Shown here: one piece after another, positions 4,141 to 28,247 of the stretch
Layout of the letters: every line of letters begins with the position of its first letter
Position numbering within the stretch: the first letter of the stretch is position 1
DNA from: Escherichia coli
GTDB lineage: Bacteria > Pseudomonadota > Gammaproteobacteria > Enterobacterales > Enterobacteriaceae
Reading direction: 5' to 3' (one strand)
DNA: 64,000 nt
Assembly (NCBI RefSeq): GCF_030013205.1
Contig: NZ_CP122648.1
The notes under the pieces: model-generated
The model's input: only the letters and a program-made list of their open reading frames with translations
Databases searched by the model: none
Told to the model about the DNA's origin: nothing
Position numbers and translations under genes: made by a program

Positions 4141-7011
4141 TTATATTTTTTCCAGCGCGGTGAGTATTTTCTCCGGTGTGAAATGCCATTCGCGTAACCA
4201 GATGCCGCATGCATCGTGAATTGCGGTAGCAATCGCCGGAGCTGCGCCATTTACACCGATTTCCGAGATCGATTTCGCCCCGAACGGGCCGACTTTATCG
4301 TCGCTCGGCACCAGCACAGCGCGGAAATCACGCGGAATGTCACCAATTTTCGGTGCGCCGTAACTGCGTAAATCACGCGTTAACGGGTGACCTTCGGCGT
4401 CATAAATGATTTCTTCGCTCATACTGTGGCCGATTGCACGAAGGGTGGCACCGTAGATTTGTCCCAACGCTAACTCTGGATTGACCGGTGTACCGCAATC
4501 CAGCAAGGCGTAGAATTTATCCAGGCGGATTTCACCCGTACGCGTGTTGACGGCGACTTCAGCAAAGTTTGCGCCATACGGGAAGGCGAAATCAGGCGTG
4601 ATATAACTGCCAGTTCCCACCAGTGAACCAAAGCCTGTGCCGGTTTCGCCTTTATGGGCAATATCCCCGAAACTAACTTCACCTTTCTTGCCGCGTACGA
4701 CGCCCGGCGTTGCTAGTTGGACATCTGCCACTGGCTCACCCAACATTTGCGCACCGTGGAACAGAATTTTCTCCCGCAGATTTTCTGCTGCCAAGCGCGC
4801 CGCGTTACCCGAGAAGCAAGTACCGGACGAGGCATATGCGCCTTTATCAAACAACGCATGATCGGTATCACCGGAGATAACATGCACGTCCTGCGGTGGG
4901 CAGTGCAGCACTTCTGCTGCCAGTTTCGTCACCACGGTATCCAGACCAGTACCAATATCCGCACCGCCAGAATGAACGATAAAGGTACCGTCTGATTCCA
5001 GTTTGATCATGCAGTTAGCCTGATCGATATCCGGGATCCCTGATTTCTGCATGATAATGGCGACGCCACGACCGATGTGCCAGTCACCGTTTTGTGGTTT
5101 TGGTGAAGACCATTGGATCATCTCGCGACCCTGACGCAGGATCTCTTCCAGTGCGCAGCTGGCGGCGGAAGGAACGGAGGTCGGCGCTTTACCTTCACCG
5201 ATTGCACCGAGAATTTTCAGCTCTTGCCCTTCGTGTACCCGGTTACGTTCGATAATTTCCAGTTGGTCGATCTGTAACTGTTCAGCCAGTTCCGCTAATG
5301 CCATGGTGATAGCGAAGTTACCTTTCGGTGCGCCATAACCCTGATAAGCACCATTTGGGCAAATGTTGCTGTAGTAGGTGGTGACCTGGAAATCGACGTT
5401 ATCGCACGGATATAACGGCAGCGACAGCGCCGGTCCGTTACACGGTACGGTGAGTGAGTGGTTGCCGTAAGGGCCAGTGTTGGCGCGGAAATCCATCTTC
5501 ACTGCCGTCAGGCGACCATCTTTTTTCGCTCCCAGTTTGACGGTGACTTTCGCGACGTGACGAGAGGTGTTAGCAATAAACTCTTCTTCACGGGTGTAGC
5601 GGAACAGTACCGGACGCCCGGTCACGCAGGTTGCCCAAGCGCACACTTCTTCCAGCAGGATGTCCTGTTTAGACCCAAAACCGCCGCCAACTCGCTCTTT
5701 AATGACATGAACTTTATGTTGTTTCATGCCCACGAGGCGCGCGACCTGGCGGCGTAAGTGCCATGGTACCTGGGTGGAGGCGTGGATAACCAGACGATCG
5801 CCGTCCATACGGGTAAAGCAGATATGAGTTTCAGTCGGGCACTGCTGCGCCTGCGTTGAGTTATAGGTTCGCTCAATGATCACATCGGCATCGGCAAAGC
5901 CTTTGTCCATATCGCCGATATGACCATGAATACTGGCGGCGATATTTTTACGGGGGCGAGAACCGATCGGGAAGTTGATGATCATATGCTCGCCGCGCTG
6001 GGCTGCATGGCTGTTATCGTCTTCCAGAGTATCTGGCGCACCAGCAACATACACCACCGGTTCATCGTGCACGACAGGTGCATCTTCCGCCATTGCTTCG
6101 TCAATCGACATTACCGGCTTAAGCACTTCATATTCAACGTCGATGAGCTTCAGTGCTTCGAGCGCAATTTCTTCACTTTCAGCGACGACCGCAGCAACGC
6201 GATCGCCGACGTGACGCATTTTCTTGCCGAACATACGGCGGTCAAGCGGTGACGGTTCCGGTGCGCTCTGACCGCCCGGGGTATAGTAGATATCCGGGCA
6301 ATTCAGGTGAGTAATAACGTGAACAACGCCCGGTAAGGCTTCAGCTTTGCTGACATCCAGATGAGTAATCAGTGCGTGAGCGTGTGGGCTACGTAACATT
6401 TTAATGACGCAGGCGTCAGCCGTTACGCGGTCTTCAACATAGCAGGGTTTCGCCTGCACCATTTTCGCGGCATCAGTTTTAGGATAATGCTTACCAATGA
6501 CTTCAAGGTCATCGCGGAAAGTCGGAGCGATATCAATGGTGGCCTGCGGATTATTTTTACGTGCAACCGCCAGTTCAATGACCTGATAGTATTGTTGCCA
6601 GCCTGCATCGCGGCTGAACAAACCAGAAAGCGCGTCGTCGATCTCTTCGCGGGTCGGTGCGGCAATGCGATCGAGAAGATCGGTGATAATCAGAGCCGCA
6701 GCTGGATCGTTATAACCAGACTGCACCACGCCAACATCAACCATTGCCTGTTGAACCAGACTTAACTCGTTCCATTTGCCCAGAGACTCTGCGGTACGAA
6801 TATCTGCCTTCTCTAACTGTGCGGCGATAAGCAAGGACGCGTTAACGATATTACCGTTACAGATAATTGCGTCAGAACCGGCAAACCCGAATCCATCATC
6901 GCTGTTGCGTACAGAGTGCATTCCCATGTTAAACAACAGCTTTTGCACGTTTTCGCCTGGATTAACGGTTAGCTCCTGAGGCGCGCCATTTAAAGTAAAG
7001 TGGATGATCAT
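4141..7011 (-). CDS. xdhD: molybdopterin-containing hydroxylase, large subunit (xanthine dehydrogenase family) with Fe-S/selenium-associated domain
   Basis: 956-aa ORF; aldehyde oxidase/xanthine dehydrogenase-type molybdopterin-binding regions; start ATG overlaps the ygfM stop (ATGA at 7008-7011). Confidence 0.9.
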   Translation of the reverse strand: MIIHFTLNGAPQELTVNPGENVQKLLFNMGMHSVRNSDDGFGFAGSDAIICNGNIVNASLLIAAQLEKADIRTAESLGKWNELSLVQQAMVDVGVVQSGYNDPAAALIITDLLDRIAAPTREEIDDALSGLFSRDAGWQQYYQVIELAVARKNNPQATIDIAPTFRDDLEVIGKHYPKTDAAKMVQAKPCYVEDRVTADACVIKMLRSPHAHALITHLDVSKAEALPGVVHVITHLNCPDIYYTPGGQSAPEPSPLDRRMFGKKMRHVGDRVAAVVAESEEIALEALKLIDVEYEVLKPVMSIDEAMAEDAPVVHDEPVVYVAGAPDTLEDDNSHAAQRGEHMIINFPIGSRPRKNIAASIHGHIGDMDKGFADADVIIERTYNSTQAQQCPTETHICFTRMDGDRLVIHASTQVPWHLRRQVARLVGMKQHKVHVIKERVGGGFGSKQDILLEEVCAWATCVTGRPVLFRYTREEEFIANTSRHVAKVTVKLGAKKDGRLTAVKMDFRANTGPYGNHSLTVPCNGPALSLPLYPCDNVDFQVTTYYSNICPNGAYQGYGAPKGNFAITMALAELAEQLQIDQLEIIERNRVHEGQELKILGAIGEGKAPTSVPSAASCALEEILRQGREMIQWSSPKPQNGDWHIGRGVAIIMQKSGIPDIDQANCMIKLESDGTFIVHSGGADIGTGLDTVVTKLAAEVLHCPPQDVHVISGDTDHALFDKGAYASSGTCFSGNAARLAAENLREKILFHGAQMLGEPVADVQLATPGVVRGKKGEVSFGDIAHKGETGTGFGSLVGTGSYITPDFAFPYGANFAEVAVNTRTGEIRLDKFYALLDCGTPVNPELALGQIYGATLRAIGHSMSEEIIYDAEGHPLTRDLRSYGAPKIGDIPRDFRAVLVPSDDKVGPFGAKSISEIGVNGAAPAIATAIHDACGIWLREWHFTPEKILTALEKI

Positions 7012-7787
7012 ACGGCTTCCTCCCCAGCCTGTTGGCAGTCGGCATACAGGTCGGCTACCAGAACTCCCGTGATATAGCGTTTATAGGCCACGCTGCCCCG
7101 CAAATCTTCCTGCGGGAAAATGGCGTTGGCGACAGCCTGTTCAAGTGCATTGCCTTCCAGATTTTGTTTTTCGACATCGTGCAGACGCAGTGCTTTACTG
7201 GCGACGCCATCCAGCGCAATTCGCATACCGTCGTGGTCTGTCATTGCAACGGCTGCCGTCACGACGGTTAAACCTGCCTGAGAACGGCTAATTTTGCGGG
7301 TCGCACAGGTGCGATACGGATCTTTAATGATAATTTCGGTTAGCAGGCGATCGCATGGGCAGGCCAGGTACTCTTCGATTGACAGTGTTTCGCCATTGCC
7401 AAAAACCAGTTCAGCATCCAGTGCCAGCAGGACGGGAAGCAGCACAGACTCTTCCTGCCGGGCGGCGATTTCACCACCAATGGTCGACTGATTACGAACA
7501 TGGCGAGAGTAGACAAAGCCGAGGGCTTCACGCAGTGCTGCAGGAATAAATCGCGCATCACGCAGTGGCTGCAAGCGAGACATTGCACCAATCCGCAGTG
7601 CACCGTTATCCCAGTCAACCCAGTCCAGTTCCAGATCCTGTAAGGAAATGGCAATCTTTTTATCGGTACGGGTTGGTGTAGCGTTGAGTTTGCTGCCCCC
7701 GGCGAACCAGACGGCTTCATCCTGGTAGCGGCGCTTCAGTTCCAGCGCCTGTTCGACAGAGTCGGGCCTGAAAAATTGTTCAATCAT
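7008..7787 (-). CDS. ygfM: FAD-binding subunit of molybdopterin dehydrogenase
   Basis: 259-aa ORF, FAD-binding PCMH-type fold; translationally coupled to xdhD. Confidence 0.88.
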   Translation of the reverse strand: MIEQFFRPDSVEQALELKRRYQDEAVWFAGGSKLNATPTRTDKKIAISLQDLELDWVDWDNGALRIGAMSRLQPLRDARFIPAALREALGFVYSRHVRNQSTIGGEIAARQEESVLLPVLLALDAELVFGNGETLSIEEYLACPCDRLLTEIIIKDPYRTCATRKISRSQAGLTVVTAAVAMTDHDGMRIALDGVASKALRLHDVEKQNLEGNALEQAVANAIFPQEDLRGSVAYKRYITGVLVADLYADCQQAGEEAV

Positions 7788-7837
7788 CTTCTTTCCTTAT
7801 TTAACCCTCTTCCCTACGGGAAGGGGGTATTTGTCAT

Positions 7838-9166
7838 TTATGCCAGCGCATCCATCCGACGCCACATACTGGCAGCGGCTTTTCTGGCTTGCGCATAAAT
7901 GGAATCGCAATCGAAGTTAAACCGACGGTCTTCATAGACCATCACGCCATTGACCATCACGCTATGAACGCTGCCTGAGCCCATACCGAAAGCGATATGC
8001 CCGGCGATATTGTCTGCCAGCAGCGGTGTCGGCGAGTTGTAATCGCAAATGGTTAAATCGGCTTTGTAACCAGCTTCCAGAAGGCCAAATTTCGCGCCAA
8101 AATTGCGGCTCATCAGTTCGTTGCCGTTAGTCAGGGCTTTGGCAAAACTGTCAGGCCACTGCGGACCACCCGCATCGCGATGTTTAAAGAAGGCAAATTT
8201 CATCTCTTCAAACATGTCCGAACCAATGCCGTCCGTTCCCAACGCCAGATTGCGGATGTCGCTAAGGTGATGGTTGTATCCGACATGGTTGTTCATGTTT
8301 GAACGGGCGTTATGCACCAGGAACGCGTCGCGTTGATTGAGCAGTGCGATGTCATCTTTCGACAAGTACAGCCCATGAGCGACCAGCGTTTTGCTGTCGA
8401 TGAGATCGAATTGCGCCAGTCGTGCCAGTAGGTCTTTGCCGTACCAGTGGTGACTGTAGGAAACGTCATAAAGGTCTTCCGCAGCGTGAATGTGCAAACC
8501 ACGACCTGTGGCTTTCACGGCTTCACGCAGCATCTCCAGACCGGCATCCGGCACGGTAAACGGCGCGTGAGCGCCGATATGTGCTTCCACCAGATACGGC
8601 TCGGTTGCTGCTTTCTTCGCCTCATCAATCTGACGGGCGAAGCGGATGTTTTCTTCTACACCTTCCTGCAACTCTTTGATGCCGTTGTTACGGTCAGTAG
8701 TTTCAAAACAGGTCATCGCGCGCAGGCCAACTTTTAAAAATGCGTTGCGCAATGTGGAGAGCGACCCGTCGATATACGCCGGAGAGGCATGGTGATCGAT
8801 AACCGATGTACATCCACTCTTAATCGCTTCCAGGGAACAAATCAGTCCGCTGTAATAGAGCGACTCTTCATCAAGGGCGCGATCGAGTCGCCACCAGAGA
8901 TTTTTCAGCGTTGAGATGAAATCCGGGCAGGGGGCGATGTTTGCCATAATTCCGCGGGAAAGTCCCGAGTAAAAATGGTTATGCGAGCAGACAATTCCCG
9001 GCATCACAATCCGACCATGCATCTCTTTGTAGCTGGCATCGGGGTAGCGTTGTGTCAGGGCATCGCCGATAGCGACAATCACATCATTTTCGATAGCGAT
9101 ATCAACGCCTTCCTGCACTTTCGCCGGGTGTAACTGCACTGCGGTGACATTCTTCAGAATCAACAT
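7838..9166 (-). CDS. ssnA: amidohydrolase-family protein (chlorohydrolase/aminohydrolase)
   Basis: 442-aa ORF with metal-dependent hydrolase motifs (CSHNHFYS, HIHAAED); stop 2 nt from the ygfK start. Confidence 0.88.
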   Translation of the reverse strand: MLILKNVTAVQLHPAKVQEGVDIAIENDVIVAIGDALTQRYPDASYKEMHGRIVMPGIVCSHNHFYSGLSRGIMANIAPCPDFISTLKNLWWRLDRALDEESLYYSGLICSLEAIKSGCTSVIDHHASPAYIDGSLSTLRNAFLKVGLRAMTCFETTDRNNGIKELQEGVEENIRFARQIDEAKKAATEPYLVEAHIGAHAPFTVPDAGLEMLREAVKATGRGLHIHAAEDLYDVSYSHHWYGKDLLARLAQFDLIDSKTLVAHGLYLSKDDIALLNQRDAFLVHNARSNMNNHVGYNHHLSDIRNLALGTDGIGSDMFEEMKFAFFKHRDAGGPQWPDSFAKALTNGNELMSRNFGAKFGLLEAGYKADLTICDYNSPTPLLADNIAGHIAFGMGSGSVHSVMVNGVMVYEDRRFNFDCDSIYAQARKAAASMWRRMDALA

Positions 9167-9168
9167 GA

Positions 9169-12100
9169 TTACACCTCCACGCGGCCCAGCAGATAATGAT
9201 GATGCTGGTGGACATGGCTAATAATGCGGCACATATCGTTCAGCTCCGGTGGTACGTTATTGAACTGACCTTCGCTGTCGATGTTTAACACCCAGCTTTG
9301 GTTATTCAGACGCACTCGTACCCGGCAATCTTCCACAAGGAAGCCTGGGTTGCTGCTGTTATCAAAGTCTTGCGACAGGCTGAAGACGGTGATTTTGTCT
9401 TTGTATGGTTTACCGTTCCACGGACAGAACTGAGCGCAGTTGCCGCATTCGTTACAGTAAGCGTCGAGGTGCAGCGTCTGGAATCTATTCTGGAAGCCTG
9501 GGACCGCAATGGAGACGTTGGCGCGGTTCGGGCAGACATCCACACACTTGCTGCAAACGTAGTTACATTCAAGGCAGCGAGCAGCTTCCTGCGCGACAAA
9601 CGCATCACGATCGTCACTGTCTACCTGGGTGATAGAGATATCGCCTTTACGTTGATAGATTTCCGCCGGATTGACGTTGTTCCAGTATTTATCGTTCTGG
9701 TGGGAACGGATATTTTCCCGACTAAGGATGGCATCGGTCGCCCGACGCGCGGTTCCGATAGCAGCGACAATGGAGGATGGTCCGCGCTGTACGTCGCCGA
9801 TCATAAAGACGTCTGTCAGACGAGTTTCGCCATTATGGTCGACGTCTGGCCAGCCGTTTTTGTCCAGCGGTACGCCCATCGCATTCAGGGCTTCAGTATC
9901 CTGCTGTTCACCAATGGCGGTGATCAGGCTGTCTACATGCAGTGTTACTGTTTCGTTGGTTTCAACCGGACGGCGACGACCTTTCTCATCAGGTTCGCCA
10001 AGCGACATAACGCGCAAGGTTAAGGTGCCATCAGCATCGAAACGTTCCGGATTATTCAGGAAACGGAACTCCACGCCGTCGTGCAACGCTTCTTCATACT
10101 CTTCGCGCCATGCTGGCATCTCTTGCAGTGAACGACGGTAAACGACCGTTGCTTTTTCTACGCCTGGAACGCGTAACGCCGCACGAGCGCAGTCCATTGC
10201 CGTGTTACCCGCCCCGACAACGACCACATGTTTGCCCAGCTTGAGCGCTGTGCCCTTGTTGTATTCACGCAGGAAGGGGAGTGATTTCCAGACATTTTGG
10301 TTGTCGCCCGCCAGTTTCACACCGCTATTTTTATCAGTGCCGGTGGCAATCAGAACATAGTGGAAGCCCTGATTTTTTAACTGTTCAACGGTCAGATCGG
10401 GTGAGCAGCCATACTCAAATTTCACGCCGTGAGCGGCAACAAAATCAATATCGTGCTGAATTAACTCTGCAGGAATACGGAACTGAGGAATGATATTTTT
10501 CACCACGCCGCCCGCATTGGCTTCGCGTTCAAACAGCGTAACCGGATGGCCCGCTCTGGCAAGGAAGTAACCTGCTGCCAGACCCGCCGGACCTGCACCA
10601 ATCACGGCAACCGGATGGCGTGAACCAGAACCGGCTGGTTTGTGCCAGCGTTGCTTATATTCATCCCAACCTTTTTCCAGCGCGACTTTTTTCAGTTCGC
10701 GGATATTCAGCGCACTGTCGTAATCCAGGCGGGTACAGTTGTATTGGCACTGGTGATCGCAAATATGACCGGTAATGGCGGGCAGGGCGTTGCGTTGGTA
10801 GATGAGTTCCAGTGCGTCGGCATAGCGGTGTTCGCCAAGCAGACGGATGTATTCCGGAATATCCTGTTTAATGGCGCAAGCAGTAACGCACGGTGCAACG
10901 TAGCAGTCGGTCAGCGGCAGGTCTTCTGCCACTTCAATACGCTCTTCTGGCTTCCAGTGTTTCTGAGTGTATTCCATGGTTAACGCGTCTGCTGCCAGTT
11001 TGTTCAGGCGTTCGACGTCAACATGGTCAAGCCCCCAGGCGTCGGAGCCTTCCAGCTCGCGCATGCAGGCACTTAAGCGCAGATAGCCGCCAGGTTTCAG
11101 CAGGTCGGTTGCCATAGTGATAGGGCGAATACCAGTATCAAAAATATCGCGGATAGTCAGCTGACTGGCACCACCGGAATAAGAAATGGGCAGTTTGCCG
11201 TCAAAGGCGCGAGAGAGAACTGCTGCAACATTGATGGAGAGCGGGAACAGCGCACGGCCTGACATATACATCTCTTCACCAGGCAGTGCGCCTTTATTGT
11301 TGATGGTGCCGAGAGTGTTAGTCAGTTTTACGCCAAAGCCGAGTGATTTTTCTTTTGCCAGTACCATCAGGCGTTCCAGCATTTCCAGCGCTTGCGTCAG
11401 CTTGAGGTCGTGATCAAATGACTCTTCTTTTAAGCCTATGTAACCGAAACCGCAGACATCGAGGATCTCACGAACACGCGCGTACCCCAGTAAGGTCGGG
11501 TTGAGTTTCACAAAGGTATTGAGCCCTTTTTCTTCCAGCATGTAGCGGCAAATGGCTTCGATTTCATGCGGAGGACAGCCGTGCATGGTGGAGAGGGTGA
11601 CGCCCTGCACCATACTGGTGGGGATGCGAGCGGGTAAGGCTTGCAAGCTTTCGCGTTTTTCCTGCAATCCGTGGCGGGCTAAAAATGCGTCATCCTGGAG
11701 TAATTTATTCAGCGTATCGCGATATTGCGCGAATTTCGGATGGTCAGATGCGTCCATCATATTGTCGATGAACTGTTGCATCGGTGGTTGCTTAATACCT
11801 TCGAGGTTATAACCGACGCTCATATTAAAGATGAACGATTTACCGGAATCAGAAGGCTGGAACATCGCTTCGAGAAGGTGCAGGGCAAACCAGGCTTTGA
11901 GGTATTCATCCCAGGCTTTAAGCAGGGTAAATTCGGTAGACCATTCGGTGTTAAAGCACTCGTCTTCGGCATCGATACAGGGCTTTTCCAGCTCCAGGCG
12001 GTCAAGAATTTGGACGGTTTTTAGTTCGATGAAGCGCCCGCCAGTCAGCCAGGAAGTGACAATATTTTGCGCGAGCTGCGTGTGCGGGCCAGCGGCAGGG

Positions 12101-12267: not shown

Positions 12268-12588
12268 AACCCTCTCCTTAGCTTATACAGATATCATTGA
12301 GTGACCGGTGTTGAGAAATCCGGTGGTTTAGGGGGATAGAGCAACAATCGCACCACTCTTGCCAGGTTTGGCGGGAAATATAAAAAAATGTGAGGCGGCT
12401 CGAAACTTAAGGGCTTTTTGTGAATGAACTCACAGGTGCCAAATGAGAATTAAAATCACTCCTGAAAATTATTATTGCCAGCCCATTTATCACTTTTTCT
12501 CTTTTCTCAAAATCAGTGATTCCTTATCATTATGATAAAGAGTGCCGGAAGGATTAAATATTTGAACGCAATCGTTTAACTACGTTTT

Positions 12589-13167: not shown

Positions 13168-13269
13168 AGTGGTTCCATTATTTATAGGGGCTAATAACGC
13201 CTGATAATTGCGTTACTTCCTGATGGATTAAGTTGGGGATAATTTATCCCAGAGAGGTCATAAAGACTC

Positions 13270-14040: not shown

Positions 14041-14087
14041 CGGCCCGGGTATTCCGGGTTACTGAAAGGATATCCATTGAGGTTGGT

Positions 14088-15713: not shown

Positions 15714-15721
15714 ATGAAAAT

Positions 15722-15755
15722 GGCCGGATGGTATTACCCACCCGGCCTTTTAATT
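15722..15755. terminator. bidirectional hairpin between convergent yqeB and yqeA
   Basis: GGCCGG...CCGGCC inverted repeat (15722-15747) followed by TTTTAATT; lies between the two stop codons. Confidence 0.5.
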
Positions 15756-16686: not shown

Positions 16687-16733
16687 TTTTCCTCACTCAT
16701 CATTCTTGATTGTGTATAGATCCCTGGCAGTGG

Positions 16734-19383: not shown

Positions 19384-19440
19384 TATTTTTCTCCAGATTT
19401 TTTACTCCCCGTTTTGCAGGGAGCAGTTCCAATAGGGTGA

Positions 19441-20637
19441 TTAAGGTGCTACAGCGTGTTTGCCTTCCCAGACAACTTCGCGGTAGTGCTTCACGTCGGT
19501 GTCGCCTTCAGTGCTGATAACCAGCACTACGGCATCTTTGTTCAGCGCCAGTTTTTCCATCAGGCTTTGACGTTGCGGGTGATAATGAACCGCTGCGAGA
19601 ACGCCCAAACCGACAGCGCCGGATTCACCGGAGATGATGCGCGGGTCATTGCCGTACGGATTACCCAGCACACGCATACCTAATGCGGCAACGCTGTCCT
19701 GGCAGGAGATGAATTGGGTGGCGCAGTTACGTAGGATTTCCCAGCCCAGCGGGTTAGGTTCGCCGCAGGCCAGGCCCGCCATGATGGTGGCCATATCACC
19801 GCCAACGTTGACGATGTCGCCTTTGACGCCGGAGCGATAAATACAGTCAGCTTTGTCAGGTTCAACAATAATGCTGTGCAGATTTTGCGGGCTGTAGACG
19901 TCGACCAGATAACCCAGCACACCACCGGCCATTGCACCGACACCGGCTTGCAGCAGAACGTGCGTCGGGGTTACGCCCATTTCACGCATTTGCTCGACGG
20001 CTTCATCTGCCAGTGTTGCGTAGCCTTGCATGATCCAGGTTGGGATTTTGGTGTAACCTTCCCAGGCGGTATCTTGCACCACTTCCCAGCCGTGCTGCTG
20101 CGCGTGTTGCATGGTCAGGCGAACGGTATCGTCATAGTTCATATCCGTGACGATGCACTCGGCACCGAGGTTCAGAATGGCGTCAACGCGTTCCTGAGCA
20201 GAACCTTTCGGCATGTAAATCACCGCATTCTGTCCGAGTTGCTGTGCTGCCCACGCCACACCGCGCCCGTGGTTGCCGTCGGTGGTGGTCGCGAAAGTCA
20301 TTTTTTCGCCGATGGCATTTTTCAGGTGCTCAAATGACAGCGTTTCGATATCAAGATGATATTTTTCACACAATAATTGAGCGATGGCGTACGCACCGCC
20401 GAGCATTTTGAAGGCGTTCAGACCGAATCGTTTTGATTCGTCTTTGACGAGAATTTTCTTCACACCAAAAAGGTTTGCGAGATCGTCCAGCGCACAAAGC
20501 GGTGTTGGGCGATAACCAGCTATTTTCTGGTGGAACTGGCGCGCCAGTTTGGCCTGGCTTTGCGAAAAGAGCGGTGATGTTTCGCCGTTGAAAAATTTGT
20601 TATCGGCGATATCAATCTTCAATGAGAAAACGGACAT
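19441..20637 (-). CDS. dpaL: 2,3-diaminopropionate ammonia-lyase (PLP-dependent)
   Basis: 398-aa ORF; PLP fold-type II lysine region (KDESKRFGLNAFKMLG); the ygeX position. Confidence 0.88.
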   Translation of the reverse strand: MSVFSLKIDIADNKFFNGETSPLFSQSQAKLARQFHQKIAGYRPTPLCALDDLANLFGVKKILVKDESKRFGLNAFKMLGGAYAIAQLLCEKYHLDIETLSFEHLKNAIGEKMTFATTTDGNHGRGVAWAAQQLGQNAVIYMPKGSAQERVDAILNLGAECIVTDMNYDDTVRLTMQHAQQHGWEVVQDTAWEGYTKIPTWIMQGYATLADEAVEQMREMGVTPTHVLLQAGVGAMAGGVLGYLVDVYSPQNLHSIIVEPDKADCIYRSGVKGDIVNVGGDMATIMAGLACGEPNPLGWEILRNCATQFISCQDSVAALGMRVLGNPYGNDPRIISGESGAVGLGVLAAVHYHPQRQSLMEKLALNKDAVVLVISTEGDTDVKHYREVVWEGKHAVAP

Positions 20638-20694
20638 ATCCTATCCTTTTGGCCTCTGGAAATAGAGGGCCGACCAGCTGATCGGCCCGAGGGG

Positions 20695-21885
20695 TTATTT
20701 CACGCGTTCTTGCGCTTCTTTCAGCAGTTGCTCGAGCAGTGCACCTGGTTTGGCGTATTTACGGGACAGGATCATCGCGGCGATGATATAAGGCTTCCAG
20801 CTGGCTTCTTTGTAGGTTGCGATACGGTATTTTTCGAATACGCCTTCAGTCACTTCACCTTCTTTACAGGATACGCCGCTGATATCAGCTGGCAGGCAGT
20901 GCATGTACAGGGCTTCGCCATCACGGGTCAGTTCCATCATCTCTTCAGTACAATGCCAGTCTTTGTGTTGCGCGTTCTGTGCCAGACACTGTTTTTCCAG
21001 TGCTTTTAAGCCTTCGTGGTCGTTCGCACGCAGCAATTCAGTACGCTCTTCCATCACTTTGTAAGGTGCCCATGACTTCGGATAAACGATGTCTGCGTCT
21101 TTGAAGGCTTCTTCCATGCTGGTGACCTGACGGAAGCTACCACCGGATGCTTTAGCATTGTTTTTCGCCACTTCAACCACATCCGGGATCAGGTCGTAGC
21201 CTTCCGGATGGGCCAGGGTGACATCCATACCGAAGCGAGTCATCAGACCGATGATGCCTTGTGGTACAGAGAGCGGTTTGCCATAGCTTGGGGAGTAGGC
21301 CCAGGTCATGGCGATTTTTTTACCTTTCAGGTTTTCCAGTGAACCAAAGTGTTCACGTAACCATGCCAGGTCAGCCATTGACTGAGTCGGGTGGTCAATA
21401 TCGCATTGCAGGTTCACTAAAGCCGGACGTTGCGGCAGTACACCATGCTTGTAACCGTCATCAAGTGCAGCGCCAACTTCACGCATATAGGCGTTGCCTG
21501 CGCCCAGATACATATCGTCACGAATACCGATGGCATCGGCGCAGAAGGAGATCATATTGGCGGTTTCACGCACGGTTTCGCCGTGAGCGATTTGTGATTT
21601 GCCTTCGTCGAGATCTTGCTGTGCAAGGCCGAGCAGGTTAAGCGCGGAAGCATAAGAGAAACGGGTACGGGTGGAGTTGTCGCGGAATACGGAAATACCT
21701 AATCCACTATTAAAGACTTTGGTTGAGATGTTTTCAGCACGCAGTGCTTTTAATGCTGCGGCAACGTCCAGTACTTGTTTCAGTTCATCTGGCGTCTGTT
21801 CCCACGTTAACAAAAAATCTTTCTCGTGAAGGTGAGAGGTCAGCGAATTGATATCCTTAATCAGCTCATTAACAGTTTTCATCAT
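20695..21885 (-). CDS. ygeW: carbamoyltransferase (ATCase/OTCase-like)
   Basis: 396-aa ORF with the carbamoyl-phosphate-binding STRTR motif. Confidence 0.88.
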   Translation of the reverse strand: MMKTVNELIKDINSLTSHLHEKDFLLTWEQTPDELKQVLDVAAALKALRAENISTKVFNSGLGISVFRDNSTRTRFSYASALNLLGLAQQDLDEGKSQIAHGETVRETANMISFCADAIGIRDDMYLGAGNAYMREVGAALDDGYKHGVLPQRPALVNLQCDIDHPTQSMADLAWLREHFGSLENLKGKKIAMTWAYSPSYGKPLSVPQGIIGLMTRFGMDVTLAHPEGYDLIPDVVEVAKNNAKASGGSFRQVTSMEEAFKDADIVYPKSWAPYKVMEERTELLRANDHEGLKALEKQCLAQNAQHKDWHCTEEMMELTRDGEALYMHCLPADISGVSCKEGEVTEGVFEKYRIATYKEASWKPYIIAAMILSRKYAKPGALLEQLLKEAQERVK

Positions 21886-22360
21886 AAAGTCCCGGTAGTG
21901 GAATGACAGGCAAAGTGGTTTATTTCACTGTGACTTGCCAAAGTGATTGGTGTTTTCACAGCTATGCCTGGGACTAACAATAAGTGTGCCAGAATTATCC
22001 TCGGGGCTGCAAAAGACTAATTTGACGGATAATGTGTGGGGTTGATCACAAATTGATGCCAGCTTCCGGTTGTTTGTAAAATACGAAAACGTTTGGCTTT
22101 TTTTATCGCGTTATTTATTTGCTGCTAAGTATCAGAAATAAGATAAAGGGACAGGCGATCTCTCTTCAGTTTGATAAACTCACCGCCGTAATTCTCATAT
22201 TGATATAGAAATGTGATATCTCTTCCATAATTTCATTAGAAAGTGATAAAAATCTTATGTTTTTATCAAAGCCAATTTCGCCTGAGTTAATATCATCATG
22301 ATCTATGAACCATCAACGTCTTCAATGATCGACTTTTAAGTAAGTCTGGAAGGTAAAGCT

Positions 22361-24139
22361 ATGGAGCTTGCTACTACGCAGTCAGTATTGATGCAAATTC
22401 AACCGACAATTCAGCGTTTTGCCAGAATGCTTGCCAGCGTTTTGCAGCTTGAGGTTGAGATCGTTGATGAAAACTTGTGTCGCGTCGCCGGAACGGGCGC
22501 GTATGGGAAGTTTCTTGGTCGCCAGTTGAGCGGCAACTCACGCCTGCTCCGCCACGTCCTGGAAACGAAAACTGAAAAAGTTGTGACACAGTCTCGCTTC
22601 GATCCCCTTTGTGAAGGTTGCGATAGTAAAGAAAATTGCCGCGAAAAAGCATTTCTGGGTACGCCTGTCATTTTACAGGATCGTTGTGTTGGGGTGATAA
22701 GTTTGATTGCCGTTACCCACGAGCAACAAGAGCATATCAGTGATAATTTACGCGAATTTTCTGATTATGTTCGCCATATATCCACCATTTTTGTTTCGAA
22801 ACTTCTGGAGGATCAGGGGCCAGGAGATAACATCAGTAAAATATTCGCGACCATGATCGATAATATGGATCAGGGCGTATTAGTTGTTGATGATGAAAGT
22901 CGGGTTCAGTTTGTTAATCAGACTGCCTTAAAAACACTTGGTGTTGTACAAAATAATATTATTGGGAAACCTATCCGTTTCAGACCATTAACATTTGAGA
23001 GTAATTTTACCCATGGACATATGCAGCATATTGTTTCGTGGGACGATAAAAGTGAATTAATCATTGGTCAATTGCATAACATTCAGGGCCGACAATTATT
23101 TTTAATGGCGTTTCACCAATCGCATACCAGTTTTTCTGTAGCAAATGCACCTGATGAACCGCATATTGAACAATTGGTTGGCGAGTGCCGTGTTATGCGG
23201 CAATTAAAACGACTCATTAGCCGTATTGCACCCAGCCCATCCAGCGTTATGGTGGTTGGTGAAAGCGGCACGGGTAAAGAAGTTGTCGCCCGTGCAATCC
23301 ATAAGTTGAGCGGAAGACGGAATAAACCCTTTATTGCTATCAACTGTGCCGCGATTCCGGAGCAGCTTCTGGAGAGCGAACTGTTCGGTTATGTTAAAGG
23401 CGCATTTACTGGCGCTTCTGCCAACGGTAAAACAGGGTTGATTCAGGCGGCGAATACGGGCACGCTGTTTCTCGATGAAATAGGTGATATGCCATTAATG
23501 TTGCAGGCTAAATTACTGCGCGCTATTGAGGCGCGTGAAATTCTGCCGATTGGTGCCAGTAGCCCAATACAAGTCGACATTCGCATCATTTCTGCAACTA
23601 ACCAGAATTTGGCACAGTTCATTGCCGAAGGTAAATTCCGCGAAGATCTCTTCTACCGACTTAATGTTATCCCGATAACTCTGCCACCGCTGCGTGAACG
23701 TCAGGAAGATATTGAATTACTGGTGCATTACTTTTTACATCTGCATATCCGTCGGCTGGGATCGGTTTATCCTGGCATTGCTCCCGATGTCGTCGAAATA
23801 TTGCGTAAGCATCGTTGGCCCGGAAACCTGCGCGAGTTAAGCAATTTGATGGAATATCTGGTTAACGTTGTTCCTTCAGGTGAAGTTATCGACAGCACGC
23901 TATTGCCGCCAAATCTGCTGAATAATGGCACAACGGAGCAAAGTGATGTAACAGAGGTCACTGAGGCACACCTGTCACTCGATGATGCGGGCGGCACGGC
24001 GCTGGAGGAGATGGAAAAGCAAATGATCCGCGAGGCGCTTTCACGTCATAACAGCAAGAAGCAAGTTGCTGATGAACTGGGCATCGGCATTGCTACGCTC
24101 TATCGCAAGATTAAGAAATATGAGTTGTTAAACACATAA
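22361..24139 (+). CDS. ygeV: sigma54-dependent transcriptional activator (enhancer-binding protein)
   Basis: 592-aa ORF; AAA+ Walker A GESGTGKE, the sigma54-contact GAFTGA motif, and a C-terminal Fis-type HTH. Confidence 0.9.
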   Translation: MELATTQSVLMQIQPTIQRFARMLASVLQLEVEIVDENLCRVAGTGAYGKFLGRQLSGNSRLLRHVLETKTEKVVTQSRFDPLCEGCDSKENCREKAFLGTPVILQDRCVGVISLIAVTHEQQEHISDNLREFSDYVRHISTIFVSKLLEDQGPGDNISKIFATMIDNMDQGVLVVDDESRVQFVNQTALKTLGVVQNNIIGKPIRFRPLTFESNFTHGHMQHIVSWDDKSELIIGQLHNIQGRQLFLMAFHQSHTSFSVANAPDEPHIEQLVGECRVMRQLKRLISRIAPSPSSVMVVGESGTGKEVVARAIHKLSGRRNKPFIAINCAAIPEQLLESELFGYVKGAFTGASANGKTGLIQAANTGTLFLDEIGDMPLMLQAKLLRAIEAREILPIGASSPIQVDIRIISATNQNLAQFIAEGKFREDLFYRLNVIPITLPPLRERQEDIELLVHYFLHLHIRRLGSVYPGIAPDVVEILRKHRWPGNLRELSNLMEYLVNVVPSGEVIDSTLLPPNLLNNGTTEQSDVTEVTEAHLSLDDAGGTALEEMEKQMIREALSRHNSKKQVADELGIGIATLYRKIKKYELLNT

Positions 24140-24148
24140 CCTCAGTGA

Positions 24149-24180
24149 ATCCGGCCTGAATTCAGGCCGGATATCCTTTT
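24149..24180. terminator. bidirectional hairpin between convergent ygeV and xdhC
   Basis: Perfect palindrome ATCCGGCCTGAA/TTCAGGCCGGAT (24149-24172) followed by a T-rich tract. Confidence 0.5.
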
Positions 24181-24658
24181 ACTTCGTTTTCTCGCAATCC
24201 AGAACTGTATTTACAATCATCTGATACCCCGTGCAGCGACAAAGATTTCCCGCCAGTCCGCGACGAATTTCCGTAATCGTTAATGGCTTCTCGCGTGGTT
24301 TCGCCAGCATTGCTGTGGTAGCCATAATCAGGCCAGGCGTACAAAACCCGCACTGCACCGCGCCGGATTTCGCATAAGCCTGCTGAACATGAGAAAGTTT
24401 TCCGCCTTTCGCTTCACCTTCCAGCGTGCGGATCTCTTTTCCTTCAGCCCAGGCGGCAAGGTATAAGCAACTGTCTATTGCTGTGCCGTCGACCAGCACC
24501 GTACAGGCACCACATTCACCCACGCAGCACCCTTGTTTGACACTTAGCAGTCCTTGTTCGCGGAGTAATTCCGAGAGCGGCGTGCCTGGTGCGGCGTGAA
24601 GCTGAAAAGGGAGCCCGTTAATGGCGCATTCGATGGTAATTGTTTCGCTGTGATTCAT
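24179..24658 (-). CDS. xdhC: xanthine dehydrogenase Fe-S subunit (2Fe-2S ferredoxin-like)
   Basis: 159-aa ORF; cysteine motifs [10 protein letters not shown] and CGFCTPG. Confidence 0.9.
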
Positions 24659-25533
24659 TGCAATTTTCCCCCCGCCGCGGCGACGGCTTCGCTAATCACT
24701 TTTTTGGTCATCGTCTGGATGAGATGCAGACGAAACTCTTTACTGGCCCGCCATGAAGAACGCGGGGCGACATCTTGCAGGACAGATTCGCTGATAGCTT
24801 CCAGCGTTTGCAGGTTTAATGGCGCATTTTGTGCAGTCTGTTCGGCATGTTGGCAGCGAATCGGCGTTGGCGCGGCAACACCAAATGCCAGACGTAATTC
24901 GCTGAAATTGCCGTTATCCAGTCGGCAATGTGCGGCGCAGCCAATCGTTGAAATATCCATTGCGTCGCGCATGGCATATTTAAAATGCGCGCTGCCCGCG
25001 TGTTCTTTCGGCTGGGGCGGAAAATGAAAGGCGACAAGGATTTCGTCATGCTCAAGAGACACTTTGCCCGGCCCAGTGTGAAAGCCATTAATCGGGACGA
25101 AACGAACACCGCGCGGGGAGTGAATCTCCAGTTTCGCGTCATAAATTAGCGTTGGCGTGGCAGAATCTGCGCTGGTAGCACCGTTGCAAATATTTCCACC
25201 GTAGGTAGCGACGTTACGGATCTGCGGTCCGGCAATGGATGAGGCCGCAGCACATAACGCTGGGAGATGACGTTGAGTTACAGGATCTTCAATGAGCTGG
25301 GTAAATGTCGTTGCAGAGCCGATACGTAGTGAGCCATCTTCCGCCAGCGTAATTCCCCGCAGCTCCACCAGATTATGAATATCAACAATATGGCGATAAC
25401 GGTCATTGTGATGGTGGAGCTGAATCAGTACGTCAGTGCCACCGGCGAGCAGTTTGGCCTGCGGGTTGTCAGCCAGCAGGTTGATGGCATCGGCAAGGGT
25501 TGCTGCGCGATGGTAAGAAGCAAAATCAAACAT
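24655..25533 (-). CDS. xdhB: xanthine dehydrogenase FAD-binding subunit
   Basis: 292-aa ORF; 4-nt overlap with xdhC. Confidence 0.9.
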
Positions 25534-25543
25534 GATGTTATCC

Positions 25544-27796
25544 TCAAATCAATCCTGCCAGATGGAACTCTTCATATAACCGTTTTGGCGTCAGCGGCAG
25601 TGTATTGATTGCAACACCGGTAGCCATCTTCACCGCGTTACGAATAGCAGCGGCAACAGGAATTATTGGTGGCTCACCCAGTGACTTATGTCCGTATGCG
25701 GATTGCGGCTCATTGATTTCGACGAACGCGCTTTCCAGTTGTGGCAGATCCGGCATGGTCGGCATTTTGTAATCCAGCAGGTTGGGGTTACGGACCACGC
25801 CGCTTTTCGCATCAATGATCATCTCTTCAAATAGCGCCCAGCCAATGCCCATTCCGCCGTGTACCTGACCTTCTGCCAGTAGCGGATTAAGAATATGGCC
25901 CGAATCATGAACGTTGAGGATGCGGTTGATGGTGACTTTGCACAGCGCAATATCGATCGTCAGATCAACAAAGGTACAGCCAAACGCTGGTGGGTTAGTG
26001 GTGGTTTTGATGGAGCTTTCGGCAGAGAGCTGCCCGCCGCGTTCAGGGTGGTAGAAAGCGTCCATCGCCAAATCTTTTAACGACATTAACGGCTCTTCCG
26101 GTCGTTCAACCAGCACGATATGGCCTTTTATCAGGGTCAGATTCATCGCTGACTGATGTAGCATGACTGCGGCGTGAGCGATGATTTTCTCTTTTAATAA
26201 CAGTGCCGCACTGCGCAGCGCAGGCGCGGCAACATAGCTCTGGCGTGAGGCAAATGCGCCGGGATCGAACGGCGTAACATCGGTATCTTGTGTTGAAATA
26301 ACGCGAACGTCGCTGACCGGAACCCCCACGGTTTCTGCCACCATTTGCGAGAAGACGGTGTCGGCACCCTGACCGATTTCCGTCGCGCCGCTTTGCACGT
26401 TGATGGTTCCATCCTGATTCATCAGAAGGCGCGCGCCTGCTATTTCTACGCCGACAGGCCAGGTGTTCGAGGTGTAGCTAAAACAGGCGACGCCAACGCC
26501 GCGGCGTAAATTGCCTTTCTGGTTCTGGCACTCTGCACGGCGTTTTTCCCATTCAAAGATTTTCCGGCCTTTTTCAAGACACTCCGGCAACCCTGCGCTG
26601 TAAATACGTTTGCCCGTGAGCGGATTAGCATCTCCTTCGCGGGCGGCGTTGCGTAAACGAATTTCAACAGGATCAATACCTAACGCTGTCGCGGCGTCAT
26701 CAAGCATAGACTCAACGGCAAATACGACTTGTGGCGCGCCATAACCACGCATCGCACCAGCCGAGGGGAGGTTGGTATAGCAGGTCTTTGAACTGTAAGC
26801 GTAGGCACAACGAGGATAAAGGTAAGCGACTTTATTCCCCCCTGCAGAAGCGATGGAGTGCCCGTGAGATGCATAAGCGCCGGTGTTAGACAGAACATCC
26901 AGACTATAACCTTTCAATGTTCCGTCGCGGTTCACGCCCATTTGCCCGTCAATAGTAAAAGCGTGGCGGGTACGGGTTGCGAGGAAACACTCTTCACGGC
27001 TAAGGGAAACTTTCACCGGAATGCCGCCAAGCTTGCTGGTCAGGAATGCTGCCATTGGCTCTTCCAGTACATCCTGTTTATTACCAAAACCGCCACCGAC
27101 AAACGGTTTGATGACTCGTACGCATGACCAGGGGATATCCAGCGCCTGACCAACCACGCGGCGAACAATGTGCGGGATCTGGGTGCTGGAAACGATGGTA
27201 ATTCGCGAGTCATCCTCCATCCATGCCAGCGATGTCACGCTTTCCATGTGACAATGTTGAATGATCGGCGTCTGATAGTGCCCCTGTACCTGGTAGTCGG
27301 CGGCATCGATTGTTTGTTGGACATTGCCCGTCGTCATCGTGCTTTGTTTTAGTAAATTGCCGCCATTATGGATTGGTTCAGCGTCATCAGCCAGCGCCGC
27401 TTCTGGGGTGGTGATAACGGGTAATTCTTGCCACTCAATGCTGACCAATTGCGCCGCTTTTTCTGCCGTGAGTTCATCACGGGCCACGACGATGGCAACG
27501 GCGTCACCATGGTGACGAACATGGCGAGTTAGCAGTGCGCGATCGGCGGTATCGCGCTTGTTTTCGTCAAGTGTCCAGGCATGCCCAGCTGTAGCGAATG
27601 GGATATCAGGCACATCTTCCCAGGTAAAAATCGCCAGTACGCCCGGTAAACTTCTGGCTTGTTCATCATTAATACTTACGGCATAACCATGTGCGATAGG
27701 GCTACGTACATATTTCGCGTAACACATGCCCGCCATAACATAATCGTCAGTATATCGTGCCCGCCCGGTGACCTTAGCAATGGCATCTACGCGCAT
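25544..27796 (-). CDS. xdhA: xanthine dehydrogenase molybdopterin-binding subunit
   Basis: ORF track 25544..27835; start taken at MRVDAIAKVTGRARYTDDY (27796) with an AGGTGA RBS. Confidence 0.9.
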   Translation of the reverse strand: MRVDAIAKVTGRARYTDDYVMAGMCYAKYVRSPIAHGYAVSINDEQARSLPGVLAIFTWEDVPDIPFATAGHAWTLDENKRDTADRALLTRHVRHHGDAVAIVVARDELTAEKAAQLVSIEWQELPVITTPEAALADDAEPIHNGGNLLKQSTMTTGNVQQTIDAADYQVQGHYQTPIIQHCHMESVTSLAWMEDDSRITIVSSTQIPHIVRRVVGQALDIPWSCVRVIKPFVGGGFGNKQDVLEEPMAAFLTSKLGGIPVKVSLSREECFLATRTRHAFTIDGQMGVNRDGTLKGYSLDVLSNTGAYASHGHSIASAGGNKVAYLYPRCAYAYSSKTCYTNLPSAGAMRGYGAPQVVFAVESMLDDAATALGIDPVEIRLRNAAREGDANPLTGKRIYSAGLPECLEKGRKIFEWEKRRAECQNQKGNLRRGVGVACFSYTSNTWPVGVEIAGARLLMNQDGTINVQSGATEIGQGADTVFSQMVAETVGVPVSDVRVISTQDTDVTPFDPGAFASRQSYVAAPALRSAALLLKEKIIAHAAVMLHQSAMNLTLIKGHIVLVERPEEPLMSLKDLAMDAFYHPERGGQLSAESSIKTTTNPPAFGCTFVDLTIDIALCKVTINRILNVHDSGHILNPLLAEGQVHGGMGIGWALFEEMIIDAKSGVVRNPNLLDYKMPTMPDLPQLESAFVEINEPQSAYGHKSLGEPPIIPVAAAIRNAVKMATGVAINTLPLTPKRLYEEFHLAGLI

Positions 27797-28247
27797 GCAT
27801 GATTCACCTGTAGCGGTTGCTTCCCGCGCTTCCATAGAAATCCCCTCGATTTGAACATTTGGTTCTTATGGCAAAGATTTAGTCTAAGCAGGCAAGATTT
27901 ACGCCAGAAACGACGATAAGCGTTAAGGGAGGAAGGAAGTGTGATGATGTTAAAAAAACACAGATATGATACGAAACAGGACCCTGAATAGGGGCAGTGA
28001 TACGTATCAATATGAGTGGCGATAAAATCAATGTGATAAATTGGGATTATTACGCATCAGGATGGGAAATAGGGTAAATGAGTCAGGAAATTCGATACAT
28101 CTACAGTGAATATTTTGCTGATGATACTTCCCTTTGCCAAATGAAATTAACCTCTTTCTCTATTACCGCGTTTTTCCAGAAGCAAGAGATTGGGTATCAA
28201 GAGGCTGGCTGCTATGATATGGCGTCTTGTTTTTTAAGCGAGGAAAG

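Follow-up and report, generated by a model that had tools for sequence, protein, structure and literature searches.

The anaerobic purine and uric acid catabolism locus of an Escherichia coli chromosome encodes a urate reductase subunit, XdhD, that has no iron-sulfur cluster ligands

A stretch of 64,000 nucleotides (nt) of an Escherichia coli chromosome (contig NZ_CP122648.1 of assembly GCF_030013205.1; hereafter the window) carries, between positions 4141 and 27835, a gene cluster, intact in this strain and with an assigned pathway, that is very probably the usual chromosomal locus through which E. coli anaerobically catabolizes purines and uric acid. The locus encodes two molybdenum (Mo) hydroxylases, the xanthine dehydrogenase (XDH) XdhABC and the urate reductase XdhD with its flavin partner YgfM. 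XdhD contains none of the eight cysteines that bind the two [2Fe-2S] clusters of canonical xanthine-oxidase-family enzymes, which as a fact of its sequence is certain, while the novelty and mechanistic meaning of the loss are not certain. XdhD-YgfM is tentatively proposed, at somewhat less than even confidence, to represent a conserved iron-sulfur (Fe-S)-less subfamily that keeps the flavin adenine dinucleotide (FAD) subunit and the fold with the former ligands replaced by D/A/D/S and S/N/S/D, that would be the first in the xanthine-oxidase family without an internal electron wire and whose Mo would be reduced by a new route, a feature unnoticed in the papers that defined the pathway.

To set the ligand columns, residues 1-160 of XdhD were aligned with the window's own 2x[2Fe-2S] subunit, XdhC. 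In XdhD they are occupied by D, A, D and S at the first site and by S, N, S and D at the second, and a Pfam scan did not detect Fer2 in the protein. The pair of clusters that characterizes the canonical family is therefore represented in XdhABC, where XdhC has 8/8 cysteines, and not in XdhD, which has 0/8. The N-terminal domain of K-12 XdhD contains no cysteine at all; the allele in the window contains one, F51C, which lies off the ligand columns. F51C was considered as a ligand change and rejected, as its column is a non-ligand position held by F, L, Y or V in other species. An AlphaFold2 model of XdhD residues 1-170 has a predicted local distance difference test score of 84, the only low-confidence parts being the three loops of the former cluster sites, and the best Protein Data Bank matches to the domain found by Foldseek are CoxS (1n60_A), NdhS (3hrd_D) and HcrC (1rm6_C), with template modelling scores of 0.78-0.86.

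Relatives of XdhD were sought by an exhaustive, profile-free search of 1.84 billion representative proteins, of which the best 150 were examined. All other fused FeS-Mo proteins among these 150 have the full complement of eight cysteines, save P0006, which has lost the first site (4/8); the closest cysteine-retaining relatives are P0004 and P0031, at 52% and 49% identity respectively. A separate scan of one genome per species, using patterns drawn from the cysteine-less domain, gave 594 pattern matches, 350 of which encode a relative, and the best 80 were analysed (loci L007-L086). Every one of these best 80 of 350 has 0/8 cysteines, with a nearly invariant substitute residue in seven of the eight columns. 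The 80 loci span the Enterobacterales, Vibrionaceae, Aeromonas, Shewanella, Rhodocyclaceae, a Desulfobacteraceae metagenome-assembled genome (MAG) and Spirochaetia MAGs, and the proposed subfamily would have the same range. Mean identity is 74% in the N-terminal domain and 83% in the Mo domain, meaning that the degenerate domain is almost as conserved as the catalytic part.

No replacement for the lost sites could be recognized. A substitute Fe-S site in YgfM was rejected because only two of its cysteines are conserved and they form no four-cysteine motif, and there is likewise no four-cysteine motif common to the FeS-less XdhD proteins. Twelve cysteines are conserved in 71 XdhD orthologues (mostly gammaproteobacterial), but only C238 and C619 are common to the distant FeS-less proteins P0001 and P0003, and most of the twelve align with hydrophobic residues in relatives, so a substitute site elsewhere in XdhD was rejected as well. 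The catalytic part retains its hallmarks: XdhA and XdhD both contain Ald_Xan_dh_C, MoCoBD_1 and MoCoBD_2 domains with the C-terminal catalytic Glu, and XdhD Glu606, proposed to orient urate for C6 dehydroxylation, is present in the window and is E in 72/72 orthologues. The literature searched, including the 2025 pathway papers, contains no mention of an XdhD without Fe-S ligands; subscription journals were outside its coverage. Separately, a 453-aa database protein (P0104) matches XdhD residues 1-167 at 99% identity, after which its sequence is of an Rhs/YD-repeat C-terminal toxin-like kind; in some E. coli genome an rhs element apparently breaks xdhD where the N-terminal domain ends.

The flavin partner has been kept. 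In all 77 loci with enough sequence ygfM lies immediately upstream of xdhD, with a spacing of -11 to +5 nt, and the order ygfK-ssnA-ygfM-xdhD is retained in most of the 80 species loci. The FAD motifs GG and TxGG are at least 95% conserved in 77 YgfM orthologues. FAD_binding_5 is detected in YgfM at 71.9 bits (cut-off 27), but CO_deh_flav_C is weak (22.8 bits against a cut-off of 25.5), whereas it is strong (63.6 bits) in the flavin subunits of the cysteine-retaining relatives; the flavin subunit of the FeS-less subfamily may likewise have undergone some remodelling. At 259 aa, YgfM is also shorter than XdhB (292 aa). Because the cysteine-retaining relatives also have a YgfM-type partner, the flavin subunit is ancestral and the loss of the ligands came later. 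A complete hydroxylase is repeatedly found paired with the FeS-less one: in Kluyvera (L014, L016 and L017) xdhABC is directly upstream of ygfM-xdhD, and in Photobacterium, Shewanella, Aliivibrio and Spirochaetia (L029, L032, L064, L068, L070, L080, L082 and L085) that position is taken by a different complete Mo/FeS/FAD trio, with 25%, 40-47% and 27-31% identity to XdhA, XdhC and XdhB, respectively.

In structures of xanthine oxidoreductases the FAD and Mo centres are ~30 Å apart, too far for direct electron transfer, and in every characterised relative it is two [2Fe-2S] clusters that pass electrons from one to the other. Given this distance and the lack of cluster ligands, the canonical wire cannot operate in XdhD, and the alignments imply that its Mo centre would be reduced in some other way. 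XdhD is annotated as a 'Mo/Fe-S-binding subunit', and the published model, built on a Rhodobacter XDH template, has electrons passing from NADH to the FAD of YgfM and on to Mo (PMC12507026; PMC12990295). Under the FeS-less subfamily proposal the candidates for the new route would be a second substrate acting at Mo, a cofactor held in the remodelled loops or an external partner.

A wire-free mechanism, in which a second substrate reduces Mo directly, either through ping-pong hydroxyl transfer from a purine or aldehyde or through hydride delivery, is somewhat unlikely but has several observations on its side. The ligands were lost while the rest of the protein stayed under strong constraint, the residues that replaced them hardly vary, and in many genomes a complete Mo/FeS/FAD hydroxylase sits beside ygfM-xdhD, so that the oxidising and reducing purine steps are genetically paired. 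YgfM would in that case be retained for stability, regulation or a side reaction, but its conserved FAD motifs argue that the flavin still functions. Furthermore, the published assay contained NADH and no second purine, and an E. coli xdhA deletion mutant grown in M9 glucose with xanthine leaves the xanthine unconsumed (PMC12507026), so XdhD alone does not use xanthine as a donor under those conditions.

It is also unlikely that the electrons come from another Fe-S protein of the regulon, namely YgfK, YgfS/YgfT or AegA, and not from NADH bound to YgfM. YgfK is encoded in the same operon and has many clustered cysteines and 4Fe-4S domains, while ygfT, a member of the YgeV iModulon, carries the name 'formate-dependent uric acid utilization protein'. 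However, the degenerate N-terminal domain fills the place of the usual proximal cluster, so that neither a docking site nor a relay towards the buried Mo-pterin can be seen, and any link of these proteins to XdhD would be hypothetical. Something else, for example a new cofactor in the remodelled loops, is a possibility.

Canonical XDH chemistry run backwards, from NADH to the FAD of YgfM, by way of two [2Fe-2S] clusters in the N-terminal domain of XdhD and on to Mo, is very unlikely. The eight ligand columns are non-cysteine in the window and in 80/80 species, the K-12 domain is free of cysteine, Fer2 is undetected in XdhD, neither YgfM nor the FeS-less XdhD proteins share a four-cysteine motif, and the flavin and Mo are separated by the distance given above. 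The canonical scheme does account for the preserved fold of the N-terminal domain and for the conserved FAD-binding motifs of YgfM. Furthermore, XdhD co-purifies with a ~30 kDa protein and converts urate to 2,8-dioxopurine with NADH (PMC12507026), and an AlphaFold3 prediction joins XdhD and YgfM with confidence in a heterodimer similar to R. capsulatus XDH (PMC12507026; PMC12990295). The reported NADH-dependent activity of purified XdhD-YgfM is hard to square with the absent ligands; the assay may have followed a non-canonical route, or else the donor in the cell is a different one. If the FeS-less proposal is true, the assay and engineering of XdhD would change, including the choice of electron donor for probiotic strains, and a very well studied enzyme family would gain a new architectural variant.

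The setting of xdhD is well defined. Genes were called from a six-frame list of open reading frames (ORFs) together with the Prokaryotic Genome Annotation Pipeline (PGAP) annotation of a near-identical pig enterotoxigenic E. coli chromosome (ETEC1748), and each was translated and compared with K-12 MG1655. Family membership was taken from curated NCBIfam cut-offs, or from Pfam domains where no NCBIfam equivalog cut-off was reached. A reading of the sequence alone had proposed that the whole neighbourhood is present and full length, and this is borne out: 16 intact genes exactly fill the interval from the xdhD stop to the xdhA start annotated by PGAP, which are the very limits given by that reading (Table 1). 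The minus strand encodes xdhD, ygfM, ssnA and ygfK, then mocA (ygfJ), then yqeA, hyuA, ygeY, ygeX and ygeW, and finally xdhC, xdhB and xdhA; yqeC, yqeB and ygeV are on the plus strand. No internal stops or truncations are present in any of the 16, and protein identity to K-12 ranges from 97.7% (SsnA, 433/442) to 100% (YgeX, 398/398).

Lengths equal those of K-12 except for start codon choice in xdhA (763 vs 752 aa) and ygeW (395 vs 396 aa). The PGAP start of xdhA, an ATG at 27835, is 11 codons upstream of the K-12 annotated start at 27802; it has the better Shine-Dalgarno sequence (GAGGGG, 7 nt before), and the alignment to the NCBIfam model begins at residue 5. Each of the 15 enzyme and maturation proteins scores above its own NCBIfam cut-off with near end-to-end coverage, whereas YgeV falls below every NCBIfam equivalog cut-off and was identified through its Pfam domains.

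The neighbourhood was also said to be well known, and rightly so. The locus is present in 5331/5426 complete E. coli genomes (98%; matches at 95% or more), 5147 of which carry at least 80% of its length in one piece, and the cluster is therefore not a chance arrangement. The pathway was solved in 2025, and the gene cluster finding is a re-identification of a known and now biochemically explained system. An Rfam scan of window positions 1-30000 matched a tRNA-Gly and nothing else, with no riboswitch or small RNA in the cluster, and all matches in a repeat search of 3900-28300 were attributable to chance or paralogy, e.g. a motif common to xdhD and xdhA.

The enzymes of the pathway (XdhD, YgfM, YgfK, SsnA, HyuA, YgeW, YqeA, YgeY plus YgeX) are all contiguous in the window, and their roles come from assays made largely with E. 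coli K-12 proteins (Li et al. 2025, PMC12507026; Liu et al. 2025, bioRxiv 10.1101/2025.04.24.650524). XdhABC oxidises hypoxanthine and xanthine to urate, and XdhD, co-purifying with YgfM, removes the urate C6 oxygen to give 2,8-dioxopurine (PMC12507026). The ring is reduced by YgfK, using NAD(P)H, flavin and 4Fe-4S centres, and opened by SsnA to ureidomethyl-hydantoin (PMC12507026; bioRxiv 10.1101/2025.04.24.650524), which HyuA converts to 2,3-diureidopropionate (PMC12507026). YgeW phosphorolyses one ureido group to carbamoyl phosphate, from which YqeA makes ATP (PMC12507026; bioRxiv 10.1101/2025.04.24.650524), YgeY takes off the second ureido group ahead of YgeX (PMC12507026), and YgeX converts 2,3-diaminopropionate to pyruvate and ammonia; the pathway is also summarized in PMC12990295. 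MocA probably makes the cytidine form of the Mo cofactor, and YqeB and YqeC may mature or insert the cofactor, possibly with a labile selenium ligand. The functional unit extends beyond the locus, with xanQ, guaD and ghxQ to its left within the window. Three more genes are located outside the window, namely ygfS and two members of the YgeV iModulon, ygfT and uacT.

Two expectations of the sequence-only reading are modified by this work. It held that ygfK, ssnA, ygeY, yqeB and yqeC lack defined roles, which no longer applies to the first three, all assayed in 2025, but does to YqeB and YqeC, which have no defined reaction; and while carbamoyl phosphate, one of its two suggested intermediates, is indeed the product of YgeW and substrate of YqeA, oxamate is not in the defined pathway. 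The older scheme of a YgfK-YgfM-XdhD selenate reductase with YgeW as an oxamate carbamoyltransferase in an allantoin/oxalurate-type branch is highly improbable and already largely refuted, for although it persists in the PGAP name of YgfK ('putative selenate reductase subunit'), in the NCBIfam models Se_sel_red_Mo and Se_sel_red_FAD and in that oxamate suggestion, the assays yield 2,8-dioxopurine, ureidomethyl-hydantoin, 2,3-diureidopropionate, albizziin, diaminopropionate and pyruvate with no oxamate (PMC12507026; bioRxiv 10.1101/2025.04.24.650524) and isotope tracing in mutants agrees with the reductive pathway (bioRxiv 10.1101/2025.04.24.650524).

The locus had further been described as selenium-dependent. 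The marker genes yqeB and yqeC, both above cut-off, lie between the two hydroxylase operons, in keeping with the definition of the Se-dependent Mo hydroxylase trait (Haft & Self 2008, PMC2276186). Dependence on selenium and selD was demonstrated with a selD mutant for the XDH and DOPDH of Clostridium sporogenes, and Liu et al. report that C. difficile needs YqeB (bioRxiv 10.1101/2025.04.24.650524). In PMC12507026 the string 'selen' occurs once, and not in relation to E. coli XdhD. The 64-kb window does not contain selD. This gene is a standard part of the E. coli genome. The description therefore holds for C. sporogenes and, going by the neighbouring markers, would extend to E. coli XdhD.

Some considerations weigh against the assignment of the locus as a working uric acid pathway in this strain. 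Urate degradation by wild-type E. coli is described as limited and as occurring with formate (PMC12507026, introduction), and glucose represses it (PMC12507026). Which of the two ureido groups is cleaved first is a matter of debate (PMC12990295), the selenium dependence of the E. coli enzyme is only suggested by yqeB and yqeC, and an intact sequence does not by itself prove expression. The practical interest of the pathway, in uric acid removal by gut bacteria, engineered uricolytic probiotics and gout, is already being pursued by others.

Translational coupling had been proposed for ygfM/xdhD and xdhB/xdhC, and the sequence agrees, with the stop and start codons overlapping by 4 nt (ATGA) at 7008-7011 and 24655-24658, respectively. 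Other gaps are also short, at 2 nt for ygfK/ssnA and 10 nt for xdhA/xdhB. Hairpins were likewise expected between convergent units, and both such junctions contain one with strong folding energies and z scores. A further GC-rich hairpin just 3' of the xdhD stop is likely to be the terminator of the ygfK-ssnA-ygfM-xdhD unit. Smaller hairpins follow ssnA, ygeW and ygeY within the operons, and in a generic scan terminator-like sites were only mildly above shuffled sequence. The yqeA-yqeB spacer is 40 nt here (15714-15753) and 220 nt in K-12, where the extra ~180 nt resembles repetitive extragenic palindromic (REP) sequences or bacterial interspersed mosaic elements and is flanked by a duplicated copy of the terminator hairpin.

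YgeV combines a PAS domain and an AAA+ domain for sigma-54 interaction with a helix-turn-helix (HTH) at the C-terminus, and its iModulon, from transcriptome decomposition, comprises xdhABC, ygeWXY, hyuA, ygfK, ssnA, ygfM, xdhD, ygfT and uacT. The ygfK upstream region was aligned across 13 loci, ranging from Escherichia and Citrobacter as far as Aeromonas and a Rhodocyclaceae MAG. The TGG-N9-TTGC core of the sigma-54 type element TGGTGCGATTGTTGCT is in register in all 13, and the CRP-type palindrome TGTGAGTTCATTCACA upstream of it is kept in the 11 Enterobacterales loci aligned. A further box, GATTTTAATTCTCATTT (12441-12457), is conserved within the Enterobacterales loci and could be a YgeV or IHF site. 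The bare sigma-54 pattern is not enriched in the window (37 observed against 40.9 expected), so the sigma-54 calls rest on position and, for ygfK, on conservation across genera; sigma-70-like sites are not enriched in generic scans either (9 vs 11.0 and 11 vs 14.4 expected). An earlier ygfK candidate, TGGCAAGAGTGGTGCG at about -97, was dropped as it is present only in Escherichia and Citrobacter, and a sigma-54-like site before xdhA (27891-27906) has three mismatches and was left unsupported. Urate degradation is repressed by glucose and a native Crp site is mentioned in the ygeV-ygeW spacer (PMC12507026); the repression fits the predicted CRP sites upstream of ygfK and ygeW, and the reported Crp site fits the one upstream of ygeW. 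YgeV would activate sigma-54 promoters before ygeW and ygfK, with the CRP sites imposing glucose repression.

Table 1. Genes, domains and predicted elements of the locus and its left flank, in window coordinates; bit scores are given against the family cut-off
Feature	Position	Strand	Description	Evidence
ghxQ	1-1218	-	flanking purine gene, cut by window edge, frameshifted	
guaD	1254-2570	-	flanking purine gene	
xanQ	2588-3976	-	flanking purine gene	
Hairpin 3' of xdhD	4116-4131	-	GC-rich, just 3' of the xdhD stop	-13.6 kcal/mol, z -3.15
xdhD	4141-7011	-	urate reductase Mo subunit (urate to 2,8-dioxopurine), 956 aa	TIGR03313 2119.9 vs 1101.9 bits; Pfam Fer2_2, Ald_Xan_dh_C, MoCoBD_1/2; 955/956 identical to K-12 (F51C sole change)
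XdhD N-terminal domain	6517-7011	-	residues 1-165, [2Fe-2S]-subunit fold	0/8 cysteine ligands
ygfM	7008-7787	-	FAD-binding partner subunit of XdhD, 259 aa	TIGR03312 488 vs 241.5 bits; Pfam FAD_binding_5
ssnA	7838-9166	-	amidohydrolase opening the reduced 2,8-dioxopurine ring, 442 aa	TIGR03314 739.5 vs 455.5 bits; 433/442 to K-12
ygfK	9169-12267	-	Fe-S flavoprotein, NAD(P)H-dependent 2,8-dioxopurine reductase, 1032 aa	TIGR03315 1781.7 vs 835.3 bits; Pfam Fer4_20, Pyr_redox_2, Fer4_7
Sigma-54 type -24/-12 element	12340-12355	-	TGGTGCGATTGTTGCT	ends 72 nt upstream of ygfK ATG
CRP-type site	12419-12434	.	TGTGAGTTCATTCACA, perfect palindrome upstream of ygfK promoter	kept in 11 Enterobacterales loci aligned
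mocA (ygfJ)	12589-13167	-	molybdenum cofactor cytidylyltransferase, 192 aa	TIGR03310 210 vs 186.45 bits; 186/192 to K-12
yqeC	13270-14040	+	selenium-cofactor trait marker, 256 aa, GTG start as in K-12	TIGR03172 241 vs 73.05 bits; Pfam YqeC
yqeB	14088-15713	+	XdhC/CoxI-type Mo cofactor chaperone fused to selenium-trait YqeB domain, 541 aa	TIGR03309 415.2 vs 220 bits; Pfam XdhC_CoxI, XdhC_C
Hairpin yqeB/yqeA	15722-15747	both	two-way hairpin between convergent genes, 10 pairs	-17.1/-22.6 kcal/mol, z -3.8/-5.0 on the two strands
yqeA	15754-16686	-	carbamate kinase (carbamoyl phosphate to ATP), 310 aa	TIGR00746 384.4 vs 358.25 bits
hyuA	16734-18119	-	hydantoinase, ureidomethyl-hydantoin to 2,3-diureidopropionate, 461 aa	TIGR02033 670.6 vs 393.25 bits
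ygeY	18172-19383	-	M20 hydrolase taking off the remaining ureido group, 403 aa	TIGR03526 717.8 vs 321.5 bits
ygeX (dpaL)	19441-20637	-	diaminopropionate ammonia-lyase, to pyruvate and ammonia, 398 aa	TIGR03528 651.1 vs 532.25 bits; 398/398 to K-12
ygeW	20695-21882	-	knotted carbamoyltransferase (2-ureido phosphorolysis), 395 aa; K-12 start 21885	NF005538 823.9 vs 453 bits
Sigma-54 promoter-like site	21976-21991	-	TGGCACACTTATTGTT, ~95 nt upstream of ygeW	1 mismatch to TGGCAC-N5-TTGCW; position only
CRP-like site	22035-22050	-	TGTGATCAACCCCACA, ygeV-ygeW spacer	
ygeV	22361-24139	+	sigma-54 enhancer-binding regulator with PAS domain, 592 aa	Pfam Sigma54_activat 237.5 bits, AAA_lid_14, HTH_8, PAS_8
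Hairpin ygeV/xdhC	24149-24172	both	perfect palindromic hairpin between convergent genes	-20.5/-21.0 kcal/mol, z -5.6/-4.8
xdhC	24179-24658	-	2x[2Fe-2S] subunit of xanthine dehydrogenase, 159 aa	NF007387 338.6 vs 212 bits; 8/8 Cys ligands
xdhB	24655-25533	-	xanthine dehydrogenase FAD subunit, 292 aa	NF007427 531.4 vs 287 bits
xdhA	25544-27835	-	xanthine dehydrogenase Mo subunit, 763 aa	NF007426 1471.4 vs 916 bits, residues 5-763

The guanine/hypoxanthine transporter gene ghxQ has a 1-nt deletion relative to K-12 at about position 1170 (codon 17) and is a frameshifted pseudogene, flagged likewise by PGAP in ETEC1748; the purine neighbourhood thus has one broken member just outside the locus. On the right, a ~29-kb mobile island (29082-58042) directly follows a tRNA-Gly (29082-29152). 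It carries an integrase (29320-30534) and a second integrase (56822-58042), and between or beside them an AntA/B antirepressor, an Icd-like protein, a primase, ProQ/FinO and PerC-family proteins, a major capsid protein, an IS3 element and a baseplate protein. Beyond the island come GH15 and a GhoT-family toxin, together with type III secretion genes of ETT2 (sctC, 61329-63032).

Over the locus itself ETEC1748 differs from the window by two bases and the match to pig enterotoxigenic strains is essentially 100%, while only two complete E. coli genomes match at least 80% of window positions 27836-52000. In ETEC4079, the closest strain for the right half, xdhA is a pseudogene with an internal stop, whereas xdhA in the window is intact; in ETEC1748 actS is frameshifted, whereas actS in the window (ORF 28227-29003) is intact. 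The window is from a third genome that is closely related to both.

Compared with K-12 MG1655 (b2866-b2881), the locus has the same 16 genes in the same order and orientation with the same 4-nt overlaps; the differences are the extra REP-like sequence between yqeA and yqeB in K-12 and XdhD F51C here, with the frameshifted ghxQ and the mobile island at the tRNA-Gly next to actS in the flanks. Among enzymes of solved structure, the best sequence match to the XdhD Mo domain is the 4-hydroxybenzoyl-CoA reductase of Thauera aromatica (1RM6/1SB3, E 3.7e-80), and HcrC, its small subunit, ranks with the best matches to the N-terminal domain by fold. This reductase is a xanthine-oxidase-family enzyme that works in the reductive, dehydroxylating direction and has an extra [4Fe-4S] cluster in its flavin subunit. 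It keeps both [2Fe-2S] clusters, whereas XdhD has ligands for neither, and YgfM, with no conserved four-cysteine motif, has no counterpart to the flavin-subunit [4Fe-4S].

The uric acid clusters of C. sporogenes and C. difficile follow the same logic, with the same SsnA, HyuA, YgeY and YgeX steps and linkage to yqeB/yqeC and selD (PMC12507026; bioRxiv 10.1101/2025.04.24.650524). The first clostridial enzyme, XdhAC/DOPDH, has iron-sulfur cluster-binding domains (bioRxiv 10.1101/2025.04.24.650524), whereas the E. coli type has YgfM but no Fe-S ligands. In C. difficile, XdhD has no YgfM subunit, UacX stands in place of YgfK, and the hydrolase UacY replaces YgeW/YqeA (PMC12507026). Beyond these clusters, YgfK and SsnA act on 2,8-dioxopurine as PydA and PydB of the reductive pyrimidine pathway (PydA, PydB, PydC) act on uracil, by reduction and then hydrolysis (PMC12507026). 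YgfK shares the dihydropyrimidine dehydrogenase-type Fer4_20 and pyridine-nucleotide oxidoreductase domains with the Pyd side, although the substrate here is a purine.

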